The notes under the pieces are model-generated. The model saw only the letters and a program-made list of their open reading frames with translations. It was not told where the DNA came from and did not search any database. 64,000 nt of DNA. It comes from Candidatus Latescibacterota bacterium. Lineage in GTDB: Bacteria > Latescibacterota > UBA2968. Where the stretch lies: assembly GCA_965116885.1 (NCBI GenBank), contig OZ220741.1, forward strand, positions 416,001 through 480,000, written 5' to 3'. The position numbers and the translations under genes are program-made. Shown piece by piece: positions 27,176 to 46,810 of the stretch. Position 1 is the first letter of the stretch. Each line of letters starts with the position of its first letter.

Positions 27176-27637
27176 TCAGTTCAAAGTAATTTCCTTTTTA
27201 ATCCCATCCATCACATCATCGTCATCAACAGGTGCGCGCAGAGGCTCTGTAAAATTCAACCGATACCCATTGGGATCCATCACAATAACCTCGCGCGCAT
27301 TCCACGGGCGGTCGTGCGGACCGGAAATCTGGACATTGCCGTCGCGCCGCACCCGTTCGGCAATCGCATCAACCGACTCGCGCAACACCGTAAAATTGAG
27401 CGTAACACCCGCACCCCGGGTGCTTGCAATCAAAACATTTGGTCCCTCCTCCATCAGAATCAAATCCGCATGGGGTGCCCACCGCAAATGCGACATAATC
27501 GGATCGCCATTCGCACCCGGCATCTGTGAAATTAGAGAAAAACCGAGCGTATCGCAATACCACCGCGTAGATATATTGAGATCATGAACCATCAGAGTTG
27601 TATAGGACGGCATCTGGTAGTCGAAATCGGATTCCAC
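27176..27637 (-). CDS. VOC (glyoxalase/bleomycin-resistance) family protein
   Basis: LMVHDL...WYCDTLGF, GPHDRPWNARE...DPNGYRLNF. Confidence 0.85.
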   Translation of the reverse strand: MESDFDYQMPSYTTLMVHDLNISTRWYCDTLGFSLISQMPGANGDPIMSHLRWAPHADLILMEEGPNVLIASTRGAGVTLNFTVLRESVDAIAERVRRDGNVQISGPHDRPWNAREVIVMDPNGYRLNFTEPLRAPVDDDDVMDGIKKEITLN

Positions 27638-27679
27638 CTCGCATGTCCTTTCTCCCCAAAGGGGTAGATAGCCACCAAC

Positions 27680-27712
27680 AAAAAAACCCGCCGAAGATGC
27701 TTCGGCGGGTTC
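27680..27712 (-). terminator. Terminator in the leader of the VOC gene
   Basis: AACCCGCCGAAG-N3-CTTCGGCGGGTT followed by a T run. Confidence 0.85.
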
Positions 27713-27742
27713 GTTTTTGCAAGACTATTATGTACTGTAAGT

Positions 27743-27925
27743 CTATCGTCTCATTTTGAACCCGCCAATAATATTTTTGTCATTACCCGTGAAAACCGCG
27801 AGATTCAGTCCACTTTCCGGGCACACATGGCCAGTAGCACGGACAAATGACATCTGCACGGATGCACTGATAGCGCAGTCATCCATTATCTGTTGGGTAT
27901 TATACTGGTGGGTTACAAAAATCAT
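27743..27925 (-). CDS. Putative 60-aa leader peptide (MIFVTHQ...NIIGGFKMRR)
   Basis: Lies between a promoter and the terminator; its last codons contain an antiterminator strand (27758-27768). Confidence 0.55.
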   Translation of the reverse strand: MIFVTHQYNTQQIMDDCAISASVQMSFVRATGHVCPESGLNLAVFTGNDKNIIGGFKMRR

Positions 27926-27970
27926 ACTTATACTCTCAACTATATCTGCGAACAAAACTGAACGGTGCAG

Positions 27971-27999
27971 AAGATATATCGGGGACACAGTAAAGTCAA
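27971..27999 (-). promoter_or_regulatory. Sigma70-type promoter
   Basis: TTGACT-N17-TATCTT. Confidence 0.7.
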
Positions 28000-28013
28000 G
28001 CGGGTTTTTCGCG

Positions 28014-28802
28014 CTAAGGTCGCTTTCGGTGAAAAACGAGATCTGCAAACGCGCCTGTCACCTTACTCCCCGTATTATCTGAATCGGACATAAGATACAC
28101 GCGCACAATTTCTGCGGGTTCTTCATCGGGATAAAAGCGCTTGAAATCCCTGTAAAAATTGCGCGACTCTCCAACCCATTGATTCACATTTTGATCCCCA
28201 CTCTCGGCAACAATGCGATACCACTTAAATTTGAAAAATCCCAGAACAGACGTCACCTGCGTCAGCGAAGTCTCCTCGGGAATGGTCCGCGTCCAGAGAT
28301 AGGCAACCTCCCGCAGCTTCCCTCTGGTACTGAGAACCGAAATACCGATCTTAGCTGCAAAATCATCGCCCGACTTTTGAATCTTGCCTTTGTGATCCGC
28401 CGTATCGCTATCATCAATCGTATTGCTGACCCGCCACCGCCATGAAACATAGGGATACTCAGTTGCCGATATGAGATCATATTGCCCCTGCGCCTGTTCG
28501 CGGACATCCTTCCCAAAGCTCCTGGGTGGTCGGTCACAGCGCCTGATCCAATCCTGACTGCGATCAACAGCCAACGCCGCGCCACTCTTCGTCGGCACCT
28601 GCCAGAAAAGTGCCGCCGCATGATCGCTGCGAATCGCAAACACCCCATCTCGGTGTTGCCCCGTAACATTTTCTCCGCAATCGTCCCAATCGCGCCGCAG
28701 CCAATCGCCTCCCATATCCACGGCAACGCGATCCTGCGCTTGCACAATACATGGAAAAATGACAAAAATAAATAAGCCTATACTAAAAATAATGCGAATC
28801 AT
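28014..28802 (-). CDS. DUF3047 family exported protein
   Basis: YPYVSWRWRV, GDDFAA, RNFYRDFKRFY, MSDSDNTG; signal peptide. Confidence 0.8.
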   Translation of the reverse strand: MIRIIFSIGLFIFVIFPCIVQAQDRVAVDMGGDWLRRDWDDCGENVTGQHRDGVFAIRSDHAAALFWQVPTKSGAALAVDRSQDWIRRCDRPPRSFGKDVREQAQGQYDLISATEYPYVSWRWRVSNTIDDSDTADHKGKIQKSGDDFAAKIGISVLSTRGKLREVAYLWTRTIPEETSLTQVTSVLGFFKFKWYRIVAESGDQNVNQWVGESRNFYRDFKRFYPDEEPAEIVRVYLMSDSDNTGSKVTGAFADLVFHRKRP

Positions 28803-28951
28803 ATCTACCTTTTGTTGAAATGTTGAAAGCCGATTAGAACCACGCTTCGCATGTGAATCAAATTCACACCTGTAGCGAAAACGCCACATGCAAGCGCGGT
28901 TTTAGCAGGGATTTTATTCATTATACGCACAAATGCAATTTTCATACCAAC

Positions 28952-28986
28952 AAAAAAAGCGCGACGGGAAAAAACCCGTCGCGCTT
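28952..28986 (-). terminator. Intrinsic terminator of the ECF/Spy operon
   Basis: AAGCGCGACGGG/CCCGTCGCGCTT stem with T tail. Confidence 0.75.
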
Positions 28987-29062
28987 ATGCGATCAAATGA
29001 TAAACTGGATTGAAAACGGGACGGCACGGGGGCCGTCCCCTACAACATCAGACCGCGCTGCA

Positions 29063-29668
29063 CTACATCTCCGATGACTCTTCGCTTTGCTCGGACTTCT
29101 CCTGCGTCTCAGATTCCTTTTTCATCTGATCGCGATCTCCCCCACGGCGACCGCGAAACCAGCCGCGACCTCTGAACCGGGGACCATCGCCATCTCTGAA
29201 ACCCGGACCACGGCCTCTAAACCCAGGACCACCGCGACCGCGAAACCCCATGCGACCGCCTCGTTTGCCGCGCATCTCACCGAGCTTCTCCTTTTGTTCA
29301 GCAGTCAGCAAATTTTTAACATCAATATTGTGCTGAATCTCGCGCGCCATAATTTTTCCTTGCGCCGCCGTCACCGCATCGACCTTAGCCTGAATATCCG
29401 AAGCCGATGGATTGTCCTGCTTCCGAACCTCACCCAAATCGATCCGCGCCTTCTGGTGTGCCGCACGCAAATCGACCATCGCCTTTTGATAGGCAGAACG
29501 CAGATCAGACATCTTTTCCTTCTGCTCATCCGTCAGTTCCAGCGCCGCCATACCGCGCATACCGCGGCGTTTGGACCTCTGGGCATCTGCATGTTTCACA
29601 AAAGCGACACTGCCAATCACGCCAATAATGAAAACACCGATAACTGCGTAGATAATTTTGCGTTTCAT
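29063..29668 (-). CDS. Spy/CpxP family periplasmic chaperone
   Basis: LELTDEQKEK and LLTAEQKEK (LTxxQ x2); RG-rich tail. Confidence 0.85.
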   Translation of the reverse strand: MKRKIIYAVIGVFIIGVIGSVAFVKHADAQRSKRRGMRGMAALELTDEQKEKMSDLRSAYQKAMVDLRAAHQKARIDLGEVRKQDNPSASDIQAKVDAVTAAQGKIMAREIQHNIDVKNLLTAEQKEKLGEMRGKRGGRMGFRGRGGPGFRGRGPGFRDGDGPRFRGRGWFRGRRGGDRDQMKKESETQEKSEQSEESSEM

Positions 29669-29817
29669 TGCATGACTCCTTTGTTTAAACAGTCGGGGAA
29701 AAATTTCCCTCCTACGGTTGGAGCGGCATCCTTGCCGCGATTACCTGAATATTTACAAATCGAACAACCCTCGGTTGTGTTCAGGCCGGCATCTGCTCAC
29801 AACGCGAAAGTCACGAC

Positions 29818-30267
29818 TTATGGTGGTCCTCGGCGGGAACCGGGTGGGCGGTCTCCCGGGGGACCTCGGCGGCCGCCACCTCGGCCGCGGAATCCTTGAC
29901 GTCTATTTTTTTCCTCAAATTTTGCAAACTGCTCAGGCGTGAGAATCGTCTTCAGTTCCTCGCGCAATTTTTGCACCTGCGACCGCATATCTTCGCCAAT
30001 TTTTCGGCGCATCGTATCGATCTCGCGCCGATATTCCTGAAATGCAGCCCGCACAGCACTCTCTTGCTCATCCGACAAATCGAGATCGCGACCCATTCGA
30101 TCAATCATGCGATTGTAGTCATAAGAACGCCCGCGCGCCCCAGGTGGACCGGGGGGGCCGGGTGAGCGCAAAAACTTGCGCTCGACAATAGTACCACACA
30201 CCAGCCCCAGAGCAAAAATGCCCATAAATAGAAGAACGGCCTGTGTGCGAGGAGAAAAAGAAAACAT
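29818..30267 (-). CDS. Membrane-anchored Spy/heavy-metal-resistance-like periplasmic protein
   Basis: N-terminal TM segment, LDLSDEQ and ILTPEQ motifs. Confidence 0.75.
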   Translation of the reverse strand: MFSFSPRTQAVLLFMGIFALGLVCGTIVERKFLRSPGPPGPPGARGRSYDYNRMIDRMGRDLDLSDEQESAVRAAFQEYRREIDTMRRKIGEDMRSQVQKLREELKTILTPEQFAKFEEKNRRQGFRGRGGGRRGPPGDRPPGSRRGPP

Positions 30268-30287
30268 GATAGTCCCTTTGCAGTCGT

Positions 30288-30686
30288 TTACTCGGGATAG
30301 ATAATCAGGCTATCGGCTTGCACCTCCGACAGCACCATCTCGGTTTGCGAATCTAAATAATCCGACACCGTATTTGCCTCGGTATCTCCATTATCTATTA
30401 ACACCATAAAAATAACAGCAGCGGCAGCGGCCAATGGCACGAGGCGTTTACCCGCCCATACCAGGCTATTCCATAAACTCTCTTCCCGAATCTGTGCCTG
30501 AACGCCATCCCACAACCCCGGCGAAGACGCCATCGGACGCTGGCGCAGGCGTCTCTGCACATGGCGAAGCAAATCGTATTCCGCGCGAAACTCTGCATCC
30601 TCTGCTATTCGCGCCTCAATTTCGCACACATGCTCCGCAGACAAATTACCGTCAACATAGAGCAACAATTTATCGCGATCAGTCAT
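30288..30686 (-). CDS. Putative anti-sigma factor
   Basis: LLLYVDGNLS, single TM segment; ATGA overlap with the sigma stop codon. Confidence 0.78.
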   Translation of the reverse strand: MTDRDKLLLYVDGNLSAEHVCEIEARIAEDAEFRAEYDLLRHVQRRLRQRPMASSPGLWDGVQAQIREESLWNSLVWAGKRLVPLAAAAAVIFMVLIDNGDTEANTVSDYLDSQTEMVLSEVQADSLIIYPE

Positions 30687-31276
30687 ATCTCCTCCCCTTG
30701 CCATTCGCGGTACAGCGGCAAAAGCAAATCGCGTAAACGCGCCCGCGCCCGCGAAAGCCTCGACTTAACAGTACCGACCGATACATCCAAAACATCGGCA
30801 ATTTCTTCTTGAGAAAAACCCTCTATATCCTTGAGAACCACCACCGCGCGATGCTCGGGCGAAAGGTAATCGAGCACCTTCTGAATCTCCTCGCGCAAAC
30901 CAATGCGCTCAATATCATTTTGCGGTTCATCCGTACCCAAAAACCGATCCAGCGTCATATCGCTCGCCTCCTGCATCCCCTCGATAGAAACACGATCGGG
31001 CCGTCGTTGCTCGCGCTGGGCAAACGTGAGACAAACATTGGTGGTAATGCGATACAAATACGTGTAAAAACTCGACCGACCCTCAAAATTTCCCAGTGCT
31101 CTATACACTCTAATAAACGCCTCTTGCGCCGCATCCTTTGCCACCTCGCTATCGCCGAGAATCGAACACGCCAGACCGTAAATTCGGTCTTCATAACGTT
31201 CAACCAACTGGCGGAAAGCCTGCACATCGCCCTTTTGGCATTGACGAATCAGATCTCGTTCATCAAAATCAGCCAT
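30683..31276 (-). CDS. ECF RNA polymerase sigma factor (RpoE/SigW-like)
   Basis: GDVQAFRQLVERY, DAAQEAF, FYTYLYRI, EEIADVL...GTVKSRLSRAR. Confidence 0.93.
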   Translation of the reverse strand: MADFDERDLIRQCQKGDVQAFRQLVERYEDRIYGLACSILGDSEVAKDAAQEAFIRVYRALGNFEGRSSFYTYLYRITTNVCLTFAQREQRRPDRVSIEGMQEASDMTLDRFLGTDEPQNDIERIGLREEIQKVLDYLSPEHRAVVVLKDIEGFSQEEIADVLDVSVGTVKSRLSRARARLRDLLLPLYREWQGEEI

Positions 31277-31325
31277 TTATTTTTATTCCTATGAGTATGA
31301 ATAGACATCCGATCTTATCTTTTTG

Positions 31326-31370
31326 TCTATTCGCTGATTCGTCTATTCGTCTATTCGCTGATTCGTCTAT
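31326..31370. repeat. Octamer tandem repeat (ATTCGTCT/ATTCGCTG)n; shorter copies near 24768-24784 and 24821-24830
   Basis: tctattcgctgattcgtctattcgtctattcgctgattcgtctat. Confidence 0.7.
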
Positions 31371-31373
31371 CCG

Positions 31374-31412
31374 TTTCGCAGGATTAGACCATCATATCAG
31401 CACTCGCGTTCC
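31374..31412 (-). promoter_or_regulatory. Candidate autoregulatory ECF promoter
   Basis: GGAAC-N18-GTCTAA, sigmaE-like, about 100 nt upstream of the sigma start. Confidence 0.7.
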
Positions 31413-31472
31413 CTATAAAACAAAAAAATGGACATCGCATTCAGAGATGTCCAGGGTTGGCGGGATCGAGAT

Positions 31473-31550
31473 GGGCGACCACGAGGATCGCCCCTACATT
31501 ATGATTTTCCATCTGCACATACATCGGGCAACCACGAGGGTTGCCCCTAC
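31473..31550 (-). repeat. Two tandem GTAG REP palindromes; the second overlaps the ilvB stop codon
   Basis: GTAGGGGCGATCCTCGTGGTCGCCC and GTAGGGGCAACCCTCGTGGTTGCCC. Confidence 0.8.
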
Positions 31551-33313
31551 TCCGTAATAATATCGGCAAACGTCATACCCGAGGGAATCATGGGCAACAC
31601 ATGCTCTTGATACGGCACAACCACATCGAGCAAATAGGGACCATTGGAAGAAATCATGCGGTCAATAGCCGGCACGAGATCCTCCTTGCGTTCCGCCCGT
31701 TCGGCGGGCACGCGAAAACCCTTTGCTATCGTCACATAATCGGGAAAAATCGCGTGACTCGGCGGAATATTCATATCTTCATGCGCCTGTGCCGCTTCCG
31801 GATCACCAATAAACGTATGCCCGCGATTGCTCTTGTAAAAACGATCCTCCCACTGCACCACCATACCCAGATGCTGATTGTTGAGAATCATAGTCTTAAC
31901 GGGAATCTTCTCCGCATACAGCGTCGCCAACTCCTGTACATTCATCGCAAAACTGCCATCGCCATCAATATCAACAACCAGCGCATCGGGAAACGCCAAT
32001 TGCGCTCCCAGCGCAGCGGGCAAACCAAAACCCATCGCTCCCAAACCGCCCGACGTAAGCCAACGGCGCGGCTCATCAAAAGGATAAAATTGTGCCGCCC
32101 ACATCTGATGTTGTCCCACCCCTGTAGATATAATGGCCTTCCCGTCTGTCATCTTATACAGCATCTCAATCGCATACTGGGGCAAAATAACATCTTCCAC
32201 ATCCTTGTAATTGAAGGGATATTTCTCTCGCCACGTTTCAATCTCATCACACCAGACCTGATAATCGCCCGGCACAACAACACTATTCAGCTCTTGCAGG
32301 GCATATTTGATATCGCTCACAATCGGCAAATGAGCAACCTTGTTTTTATTAATCTCAGAAGGATCAATATCTATATGCACAATGCGACCGTGTTTGCAAA
32401 ACTCTTCGAGCTTACCCGTCACCCGATCATCAAAACGCACCCCAAATGCCAGCAACAAATCGGCGTGATTGATGGCGTAATTGGCGTAAACCGACCCGTG
32501 CATGCCCAGCATCTGCAAAGACTGGGGATCTGTTTGCGGAAAAACCCCCAGCCCCATCAACGTCTGCGCCACGGGAATACGTGTTTTCCGAGCAAACTCG
32601 CGAAGCTCTTCCGACGCATCTGCAGTCACAATCCCTCCACCTGCATAAATGAGCGGGCGTTTGGATTCTAAAATCGCCTGCGCAACCTCTTGAATTTGCG
32701 CACGGCTGGCGTGCAAATGATTGGGGGTATAGCTGCGAATAGAAACCGTCTCGGGAAAATCGGGCACACAAACACTTTGCTGCACATTTTTGGGAATATC
32801 GACCAGCACAGGACCGGGCCGCCCAGACGAGGCAATAAAAAACGCCTCTTTGACAACGCGGGGAATATCTTCAATGCGATCCACGAGATAATTGTGCTTC
32901 GTAATCTGCCGCGTAACCTCAATAATCGGAGTCTCTTGAAAAGCATCGCGACCAATAACAGCAGTGGGGACCTGCCCCGTGATGGCAACAAGTGGCACAG
33001 AGTCCATTTTGGCATCGGCCAGCCCCGTGACCAGATTGGTAGCACCTGGTCCAGACGTTGCCATACACACCCCAACTTTGCCCGAGGCTTTGGCATATCC
33101 CTCAGCAGCGAAAATTTCGCCCTGTTCGTGCCGGCACAATACAACCTGGATATTGGAACGCGTGAGGGACTGGTGCATTTCCATACTGGCCCCTCCGGGA
33201 TAGCCAAAAAGAACTTCGACCCCCTCGCGGATGAGACTTTCAACCAGAATATCGGCACCGCTCATTTCGCCAGGAGTGGAACCAGATGCCAGAGTCTGGG
33301 GATTGCTCGCCAT
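31547..33313 (-). CDS. ilvB: Acetolactate synthase large subunit
   Basis: [37 protein letters not shown]...[11 protein letters not shown]. Confidence 0.95.
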
Positions 33314-33367
33314 TGCAAAAATCTCCTTGATATAGGAGCACACCTGCGCGTGCGTCCTTTGTCAGAC

Positions 33368-33404
33368 AAAAAAAAACCGCCATTGCATTGTAGCGATGAC
33401 GGGA
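33368..33404 (-). terminator. ilvB attenuator terminator
   Basis: CCGTCATCGC/GCAATGGCGG stem followed by T9. Confidence 0.8.
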
Positions 33405-33440
33405 CAAGATGTTTTTTCGATACGATCATCAATCCCATCA

Positions 33441-33521
33441 TCACATGGGTACAAGTACTACAACACGGCCTACAACAGCCGTTGTAATTGCAATGTGGGA
33501 TGTGGTGATCTGATGTGTCAT
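33441..33521 (-). CDS. ilvB leader peptide MTHQITTSHIAITTAVVGRVVVLVPM
   Basis: Ile/Val/Leu/Thr-rich; antiterminator GATGATGGGA (33433-33442) pairs with TCCCGTCATC. Confidence 0.85.
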   Translation of the reverse strand: MTHQITTSHIAITTAVVGRVVVLVPM

Positions 33522-33551
33522 AACTCTGCACTCTCTTTCGGTGAGGAAAAA

Positions 33552-33580
33552 AAGATACAGGCTTAGTCCAGTTCTGTCAA
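33552..33580 (-). promoter_or_regulatory. Sigma70 promoter of the ilvB leader
   Basis: TTGACA-N17-TATCTT. Confidence 0.75.
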
Positions 33581-33598
33581 GAAAACTCGTCAAAAGCA

Positions 33599-46531: not shown

Positions 46532-46800
46532 AAAAAAGCCCCTTCGTCATCATATAGGGACGAAAGAGCTTCTCCGCGGTACCACCCTATTTGCGCTAAA
46601 AAGCACCACTCAGCGGATGGCCATCACCATCCTGTCCATTATCGGTGGACCCACCGGCTCGGCTTAATAGGAAACTGTCTCTCCATTCGGCTTTGCAGCT
46701 CGGGAGGGAACTTCGCCTGTGCATCCTGCAGATGTGCTTTCAGCCCAGGACACATCCTCTCTATGCAGTTGGGAACAGGCTACTTTTCTCCGTCATAGCT
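46532..46800 (-). ncRNA. T-box riboswitch (Phe specifier), transcriptional type
   Basis: AGGGTGGTACCGCG T-box (46575-46588); stem I AGTA, AGAGA and GCTGAAA motifs; GAAG-TTC specifier (46708-46710); terminator 46532-46570. Confidence 0.9.
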
Positions 46801-46810
46801 TTAAAGGCAA

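Follow-up and report, generated by a model that had tools for sequence, protein, structure and literature searches.

A leader reading frame and terminator ahead of a VOC–GGT–methyltransferase operon in a sponge-associated Latescibacterota genus: a probable transcription attenuator without control codons

Introduction

A 64,000-nt stretch from a Candidatus Latescibacterota bacterium (assembly GCA_965116885.1, contig OZ220741.1, positions 416,001 to 480,000; hereafter the window) carries a leader module, all features of which lie on the minus strand, composed of a promoter, a 60-codon open reading frame (ORF) and an intrinsic terminator. We consider it probable that this module is a ribosome-mediated transcription attenuator that operates through its leader ORF without control codons, and that it controls the three genes that follow, encoding a VOC protein, a gamma-glutamyltranspeptidase-like (GGT-like) hydrolase and a methyltransferase. 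We infer that readthrough of the terminator is regulated, and likewise infer the direction of that regulation and its signal; an antibiotic or nascent-peptide arrest as the input is pure conjecture.

An earlier note on this DNA had described the promoter, the 60-codon ORF ending IIGGFKMRR, an antiterminator complementary to the terminator and the terminator itself, and all of these proved to be where it had placed them. In our scans the promoter and terminator matches are by themselves not above chance, with 4 promoter-like sites in 2 kb of the window against 2.6 ± 1.8 in shuffled sequence, and 4 terminator-like sites against 2.1 ± 1.5. The module nevertheless stands above chance because its parts are conserved among relatives, and it is on these relatives that the weight of the argument rests.

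Conservation and linkage of the module

The promoter combines a −35 element TTGACT (27999-27994) and a −10 element TATCTT (27976-27971) across a 17-nt spacer, a 9/12 match in the promoter scan, and is followed by a purine-rich GAGAG (27938-27934, in a motif assigned to 27938-27931) and the leader ORF, which runs over 183 bp from ATG at 27925 to TAG at 27745-27743. The encoded peptide begins MIFVTHQYNTQQ and reads in full MIFVTHQYNTQQIMDDCAISASVQMSFVRATGHVCPESGLNLAVFTGNDKNIIGGFKMRR. Region 1 (AACCCACCAG, codons 4-7, 27914-27905), delineated by RNAalifold, is a candidate anti-antiterminator through its pairing with region 2; the middle of the ORF (27904-27769) holds two conserved stems, predicted by folding and RNAalifold, inside the helix of regions 1 and 2 (1:2). 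Region 2, the candidate antiterminator strand TTGGCGGGTTC (27768-27758), pairs over 11 nt, one of them G-U, with GAACCCGCCGA (27712-27702) in the terminator 5' arm. Between the two lies a small hairpin, AGACT...AGTCT (27745-27722), which begins at or next to the stop codon and has a variable loop. The terminator, made up of regions 3 and 4, spans 27712-27684 with a T run to 27680. Its presence agrees with the earlier note, which had given the stem 12 bp; we count 13 pairs, 8 of them G-C, around a 3-nt loop. Next comes a CCCC-loop-GGGG hairpin, CCCCTTTGGGG, joined to AGAAAGGA (together 27666-27645), the ribosome-binding site of the first structural gene.

When 41 related genomes, including that of the window (G000), were searched with the 374-nt spacer DNA, the 21 matches constituted the whole of one sponge-associated, uncultivated Latescibacterota genus: the module was present in all 20 other genomes of the genus and in none of the 20 outside it. 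Sixteen of the genus copies are 86-94% identical and four (G016, G001, G018 and G010) are 66-69% identical. A profile of 21 peptides recovered the ORF from 22 of 168 genomes of the phylum, the sole match beyond the genus being G106 (E 9.3e-9), a member of another family of the same class. An nhmmer leader profile returned only the locus itself from its own genome, where the leader is therefore single-copy, and found nothing near eight methyltransferase homologues in other genera, including that of G107, whose methyltransferase is 89% identical. Searched against 5.8 billion proteins, the peptide profile gave 31 clusters, all from close relatives and annotated, where named, as 'hypothetical protein'. 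A pattern scan of one genome per species gave 34 stretches, 18 of them Latescibacterota records from the genus and G106. The other 16, in other phyla, are without a terminator after the match and mostly resemble one conserved coding stretch, and were set aside as chance or coding matches. A stricter pattern had no match in metagenome contigs, a result that says nothing on habitat. On these comparisons, the leader family is real but narrow.

The linkage of the module is equally consistent. The promoter hexamers are kept in 21/21 genus genomes whatever the upstream neighbor, with TTGACC-N17-TATCTT in G106; the terminator is kept in 22/22 copies, and both the CCCC-loop-GGGG hairpin and a VOC gene directly after the module occur in 21/21 genus genomes. 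Upstream, a DUF3047 gene (Pfam E 1.3e-22), which in the window ends at 28014, adjoins the promoter in 10 loci, lies 0.6-0.9 kb away in seven and was not found within the fetched flank in four, namely one short contig and the loci of G016, G010 and G018. In G106 the same unit (TTGACC-N17-TATCTT, a 61-codon ORF, the GGCGGGTT motif of region 2, the AGAC hairpin, the terminator and, at about 2865-2890 of locus L035, the CCCC hairpin) precedes a different gene, an MFS transporter with weak, sub-threshold similarity to Tet-type efflux pumps. This transporter is followed by a methyltransferase 83% identical to that of the window, with no VOC-GGT pair there, making the methyltransferase the gene common to both leader-bearing operons. 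Because G106 has the same promoter-ORF-terminator-CCCC-hairpin unit before other genes, the leader behaves as a portable control cassette joined to different first genes.

Some variation surrounds these fixed parts. In G106 a 20-codon ORF begins at the CCCC hairpin and ends in an ATGA that overlaps the MFS start codon. The 5' leader of G014 (L016) has an insertion of about 190 nt between promoter and ORF, and six genomes (L014, L018-L022) have insertions of 40-390 nt after the terminator, with the parts of the module intact in every case. The terminator loop (27695-27699; alignment A3 columns 343-345) reads either CAT or its reverse complement ATG (GAAG-CAT-CTTC versus GAAG-ATG-CTTC), and the palindromic tip of the hairpin looks as if it had been flipped repeatedly.

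Selection on the leader reading frame

Conservation of the ORF in relatives, which the earlier note had proposed to check, is borne out: the frame is open in 22/22 copies from the same starting place (ATG in 21, GTG in one), whereas the other two frames contain 0-6 stops, and the place of the stop is held across frameshifts. A GAGAG-like motif, the putative ribosome-binding site, precedes the start codon by 4-9 nt in most copies and is weak in G010. The GGGTT of region 2 ends 10-19 nt ahead of the stop in all 22 copies, and from the stop it is another 24-34 nt to the terminator arm. Interior insertions and deletions keep the frame (+3 in G003, −6 in G010, +3 and +51 in G001), and in the four far genomes a +7/−4 pair shifts it only across the GGCGGGTT motif before restoring it. 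In G106, two 1-nt deletions place the last 24 codons in another frame, which is closed 18 nt past region 2 by a newly arisen TGA, the genus copies having TTA in its place. Among database variants, P0031 has about 26 middle codons in another frame followed by the normal C-terminus, P0027 has an in-frame insertion, and P0030 has Arg in place of the otherwise invariant Cys17.

The ratio of nonsynonymous to synonymous substitution (dN/dS) across 16 near genomes, a set that leaves out G003 owing to its 3-nt insertion, is 0.38 for the leader in frame; its two other frames give 1.0 and 1.5, and the VOC gene gives 0.14. Synonymous diversity is 0.086 in leader codons 40-57 versus 0.202 in the VOC gene, a low value that points to constraint at the nucleotide level. 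Moreover, GCGGGTT is invariant in 22/22 copies, within GGCGGGTT in 21 and AGCGGGTT in G016, and is read in two different frames, so that its conservation is not a by-product of coding; likewise, a GTGG....AATCTCGCG block is conserved in G106 although it stands there in another reading frame. These patterns suggest that what is selected is translation between set start and end points, together with the nucleotide sequence, and that the peptide is selected only weakly. The ORF belongs to no Pfam family. In line with the earlier note, no run of one codon type occurs in the ORF, nor does an amino-acid codon run occur in any of the 22 peptides. A resemblance of the peptide start, MIFV, to the IFVI arrest motif of ErmCL was set aside, since neither the far group nor G106 keeps this start.

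Alternative RNA pairings

The 296-nt leader has a minimum free energy (MFE) of −86.4 kcal/mol (z −2.13), a stability matched by 5 of 200 shuffled sequences. For 21 copies, RNAalifold predicts a long-range helix between AACCCACCAG in region 1 and TTGGCGGGTT in region 2, two inner stems, the AGAC hairpin and the terminator. Across the 22 copies, 88.2% of alignment cells are paired in helix 1:2, 95.5% in the AGAC hairpin, 98.6% in the terminator (3:4) and 96.7% in the 11-bp helix between regions 2 and 3 (2:3). A compensatory change from A-U to C-G is seen in helix 1:2 of G001 and one from C-G to G-C in helix 2:3 of G106; the hairpin and the terminator have none. When the partner strand is slid by 1-3 columns, pairing falls to 29-56%. 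The complementarity of regions 2 and 3, the loss of which would have spoken against the earlier note, is thus kept in 22/22 copies.

In six copies for which energies were calculated, the terminator amounts to −17 to −23 kcal/mol and the antiterminator with its hairpin to −14 to −21 kcal/mol. Before region 3 exists, helix 1:2 is part of the MFE fold of 19/22 copies; once region 3 exists, helix 2:3 is favored over 1:2 in 22/22, by 0.4-17.6 kcal/mol. Judged by folding alone, an untranslated RNA might either terminate, if 1:2 forms first, or read through, as 2:3 is the more stable.

Transcript coverage

Contigs from four metatranscriptome runs of one study (X1-X4) cover the locus. In three of the four runs the leader is 3- to 9-fold deeper than the VOC gene, and the assembly is split between 27761 and 27696, at the terminator stem or shortly ahead of it. 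In X2, a leader contig at 27761-27926 has a depth of 32.8 and the downstream contig (27386-27696) a depth of 3.8; the corresponding values in X3 are 10 (27732-28009) and 2.2 (27591-27741), and in neither of these runs does a contig cover the upstream side. The leader contig of X4 (27702-27958, depth 17.2) extends from about the predicted transcription start to the terminator, with depths of 4.7-5.1 downstream and 2.8 upstream of 27950. These depth steps fit a strong leader promoter followed by an efficient but leaky terminator, and are hard to ascribe to DNA carry-over. A separate promoter downstream of the terminator, which the earlier note had named as evidence against its proposal, was not found: a scan limited to the sigma-70-type consensus gave no promoter-like site between terminator and VOC gene in the window (38 nt), G016 (387 nt) or G001 (495 nt).

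A model for attenuation at the leader

In the model that we propose, transcription would start at the conserved promoter and a ribosome would translate the 60-codon ORF, near the end of which region 2 could pair either with region 1 or, as an antiterminator, with region 3. A ribosome in step with the polymerase would be at the stop codon by the time the terminator is made, standing between regions 2 and 3; the antiterminator would then be unable to form, and folding of the terminator would end transcription and leave an abundant short leader RNA. Conversely, if the ribosome were to lag anywhere in the ORF, region 2 would be free as region 3 emerges, the nearly iso-energetic antiterminator could form, and the polymerase would read into the operon. 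Since the ORF has no control-codon run, the input would not be one amino acid, and would instead be a general slowing of translation or a specific arrest induced by a drug or metabolite. The earlier note had a ribosome at the stop mask the antiterminator. The position of the stop accords with this only in part: with GGGTT 10-19 nt away, the ribosome would in many copies stand beside region 2, and it is more plausible that a terminating ribosome blocks the 2:3 pairing sterically than that it sits on region 2. Elsewhere in the window, aspS and ilvB are each preceded by a classical leader-peptide attenuator, which indicates that the lineage uses this mechanism.

In a more specific version of this model, which strikes us as unlikely, the leader would serve expressly to detect one natural product or metabolite that targets translation in the sponge holobiont, and would switch on a resistance-like cassette that has moved, sensor included, between bacterial families. 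Sensing might then occur through arrest on the conserved N-terminus (M-I/V/T-F-V/A-T-H-Q, overlapping region 1) or through a ligand bound by the RNA inside the ORF, and the cassette would encode a VOC binder together with a cephalosporin-acylase-like hydrolase and a methyltransferase, or else an MFS pump. If this held, an uncultivated phylum would harbor a new class of sensor, based on a nascent peptide or on RNA, and the leader could help to trace the compound that it detects.

A number of observations weigh against attenuation by a translating ribosome. With respect to the ORF, variable sites number 10, 12 and 18 at the three codon positions, a distribution without clear skew, and the probability of the frame staying open under substitutions alone is about 0.2 per divergent lineage, which makes its survival only mildly unlikely. 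In 10/22 copies 15-19 nt separate region 2 from the stop, and a ribosome terminating there may leave region 2 uncovered. With respect to the RNA, the pairings 1:2, 2:3 and 3:4 are possible in all copies, but mainly through invariance in a narrow clade. The stem covariation that the earlier note had put forward as a check amounts to the two compensatory changes given above, a single one per helix for 1:2 and 2:3, and the counts do not beat shuffles, 95 and 122 of 500 of which attain as many pairs with change on both sides. In the RNAalifold consensus, compensatory change occurs in only 4 of 55 predicted pairs and the covariation term contributes only −1.65 of −50.39 kcal/mol. Region 2, moreover, is nearly a copy of the terminator 3' arm, and conservation of this copy makes its complementarity to the 5' arm automatic. 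Helix 1:2 is absent from the MFE fold of G016, G001 and G106, region 1 has a conserved A-C mismatch in 21/22 copies, and G010 and G018 are without the terminal 2:3 pair. All Rfam leader models fall below threshold, the best being His_leader at 23.9 bits against a threshold of 49. The RNA contigs do not show transcript ends or strand, and X1 provides one contig (27405-28122, depth 12.6) that spans DUF3047, leader and VOC gene.

Alternative explanations

Another reading, which the earlier note had named among those that would refute its proposal, takes the ORF for a small gene in its own right, the source of a small protein or of a peptide like a precursor, transcribed from its own promoter toward a terminator that is strong but leaks. 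The VOC gene and those after it would then be expressed by constitutive leak-through, and the pairings would be incidental. We hold this to be rather unlikely, although it accounts for the recognizable conservation of the N-terminal 37 residues as far as G106 and for a dN/dS below 1, and a highly expressed small gene with a partial terminator would look the same in the three runs where the leader is the deeper. Precursor peptides, too, combine an N-terminus that is conserved with a C-terminus that varies, and the methyltransferase has weak matches, far below cut-off, to methyltransferases of ribosomally synthesized and post-translationally modified peptides (RiPPs). A small gene is harder to reconcile with a C-terminal half that is read in different frames among copies while its nucleotides are conserved, with the out-of-frame middle of P0031 and the Cys17 to Arg change of P0030, and with constrained synonymous sites in an ORF of no Pfam family. 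Nor does the locus look like that of a RiPP precursor, with a selected peptide and a dedicated maturase: the frames differ, and Pfam and NCBIfam give only VOC, GGT, methyltransferase or MFS genes downstream and no maturase family. Furthermore, there is neither room nor signal for a separate VOC promoter.

Improbable in our view, and less credible than a small gene, is a riboswitch-like or factor-binding RNA, in which helix 1:2 would close, as P1, a domain of about 150 nt whose stabilization by a ligand or protein would free region 3 for termination, the ORF being secondary. A P1 that shares a strand with an antiterminator and is followed by a terminator is a standard riboswitch expression platform, the GTGG....AATCTCGCG and GCGGGTT blocks persist across changes of frame, synonymous sites are constrained and the fold somewhat exceeds shuffled sequence in stability (z −2.13). 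Set against this, the inner stems show only slight covariation (the compensatory changes in 4/55 pairs), the domain tolerates the 51-nt insertion of G001 and the in-frame insertion of P0027, and the start codon, open frame and stop position kept across frameshifts would go unexplained. No Rfam family matches the leader at its gathering threshold; at E up to 10, 27600-28100 has 13 sub-threshold matches, mostly to leader and small-RNA models and driven by the terminator, with leader-peptide families appearing weakly and no Rfam riboswitch among them, a comparison that speaks to described aptamers. Least credible of all, and in our judgement very nearly dismissible, is that the stretch is a long 3' untranslated region and terminator of the DUF3047 gene with no role for the VOC gene. 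No terminator separates the DUF3047 stop (28014) from the leader, and the X1 contig joins DUF3047, leader and VOC gene; however, the module keeps its own promoter and stays with the VOC gene where DUF3047 is 0.6-0.9 kb off (7 loci) or was not found within 1.5 kb (G016, G010, G018), the upstream gene is divergent in G106, and depth in X4 drops from 17.2 on the leader to 2.8 upstream of 27950.

Comparison with known systems

The closest documented case, by analogy, appears to be the bmrB (yheJ) leader of the Bacillus subtilis bmrBCD operon, which has a 162-bp ORF, alternative stem-loops and an intrinsic terminator, with readthrough that rises with ribosome-targeting antibiotics and needs leader translation (Reilman et al. 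2014, PMC4191407). It resembles the Latescibacterota leader in having a long ORF (162 bp versus 183 bp) without an amino-acid control-codon run, and alternative stem-loops and an intrinsic terminator before structural genes, with genes of a drug-handling type downstream. The bmrB terminator lies inside the coding sequence, whereas here the terminator is not within the leader ORF, which stops 24-34 nt before the terminator arm; in addition, region 1 here occupies codons 4-7, some 150 nt ahead of region 2, and encloses a structured domain. The phyla differ too, and the likeness drawn here concerns layout.

The classical amino-acid attenuators (trp, his, thr, leu, ilv and pheA; RF00513, RF00514, RF00506, RF00512, RF01859) share with our leader the logic of 1:2, 2:3 and 3:4 pairings, a stop codon that comes shortly after region 2, and a terminator that immediately precedes the first gene. 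Our leader differs from them in having no regulatory codon run, an ORF two to four times longer, and regions 1 and 2 that are far apart. In the antibiotic-responsive leaders of vmlR, lmo0919, msrD, erm and cat, slowing or arrest of a ribosome on an upstream ORF redirects RNA folding and switches on a stress gene. By analogy, ribosome slowing on the ORF described here would switch on a gene that handles stress. Those upstream ORFs are short, ranging from a few codons to about 20, carry defined arrest motifs and control ABCF or rRNA-methylase genes; here, by contrast, there are 60 codons, no identified arrest motif, and VOC, GGT-like hydrolase, methyltransferase or MFS genes. Judged by its architecture, the leader would work like described attenuators and belongs to no described family. 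None of the papers listed by a literature search on this subject mentions an attenuator.

If our preferred reading of the module as a ribosome-mediated attenuator is right, it extends control-codon-free attenuation of this kind, studied mainly in resistance genes of Firmicutes, to an uncultivated, sponge-associated lineage of Latescibacterota. The layout is unusual, with a 60-codon ORF that has a structured domain inside it and whose first and last parts would pair together, and the comparative data provide a clean example of selection on where translation ends, not on what is translated. Should translation inhibitors prove to trigger the switch, this would point toward chemical warfare among the microbes of the sponge, and the leader would lend itself to use as a compact sensor part. 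We regard the result as a well-supported annotation of a regulatory element, not as a new principle.

Downstream genes and operon history

The VOC gene (27637-27176, GTG start) belongs to the glyoxalase/bleomycin-resistance superfamily (Pfam PF00903, E 2.9e-11), and the nearest solved relatives of its product are 'glyoxalase/bleomycin resistance' proteins (E 2e-7). It is followed by the gene for a cytoplasmic GGT-like N-terminal nucleophile hydrolase (27157-25577; Pfam PF01019, E 2.5e-147), whose best solved relative is 2nlz, a 'cephalosporin acylase' (E 3.8e-149). The start of the methyltransferase gene (25572-24838) overlaps the end of the GGT-like gene; its product is a class I S-adenosylmethionine methyltransferase, with 3dtn as the nearest solved structure (E 4.9e-30), and appears from these resemblances to act on small molecules. 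Taken together with the MFS pump of G106, the controlled genes seem to be of a xenobiotic-handling flavor, which fits a stress or drug input and does not show one.

In G029, G081 and G082, of the same order, a methyltransferase of 51-54% identity follows ilvB and genes for an extracytoplasmic function (ECF) sigma factor, an anti-sigma factor and LTXXQ proteins; in the window the counterparts of this row lie upstream of DUF3047 (28014-33343; compared with L071, L074 and L076). Because the methyltransferase directly follows the ilvB-sigma-LTXXQ row in other families of the order, DUF3047 and the leader-VOC-GGT segment of the genus look like insertions before an older methyltransferase gene. The window's methyltransferase is 83-89% identical to copies in a genus of another family (G106, L035 894-1628; G107, L070 533-1264, where the gene has no leader) and shares only 38-56% identity with those of its own order and class, which suggests lateral transfer between sponge-associated lineages. 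In G016, G010 and G018 the leader-VOC-GGT segment is present and the window query found no methyltransferase. In G036 (L075 574-2575), a methyltransferase homologue of 47% identity comes after a VOC gene and a GNAT acetyltransferase gene, such that the pairing of VOC and methyltransferase recurs without the leader.

Other leader elements in the window

After the methyltransferase, on the same strand and beyond a 297-nt spacer, comes aspS, the gene for a non-discriminating aspartyl-tRNA synthetase. The methyltransferase stop is followed by a hairpin without a T run, and the scan found no T-run terminator there. The earlier note had seen no obvious promoter for the aspS leader itself, and our scan agrees, finding no site ahead of it and a single match inside the aspS leader ORF; this arrangement would permit co-transcription of methyltransferase and aspS, and with it the two attenuators in series that the earlier note had suggested. 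The leaders before aspS and ilvB, to which the earlier note had compared the module, are indeed present, with Asn/Asp and Ile/Val/Thr codon runs respectively. The aspS leader ORF encodes MNTMHIRYFQIAQFTGNNNDDNNPIRRRAGPA (24730-24632, minus strand), with the Asn/Asp codon run NNNDDNN; downstream of it come a terminator of 11 bp (24601-24573) and a T run. The ilvB leader (33370-33590, minus strand) has a promoter, TTGACA-N17-TATCTT, with the same −10 hexamer as the leader studied here, and a 26-codon ORF (33521-33441) encoding MTHQITTSHIAITTAVVGRVVVLVPM, rich in Ile, Thr and Val, ahead of a T-run hairpin. The only match in the window at Rfam gathering thresholds is a T-box leader at 46553-46805 (minus strand; RF00230, 106.5 bits), which indicates that this genome uses T-box riboswitches besides leader-peptide attenuators.

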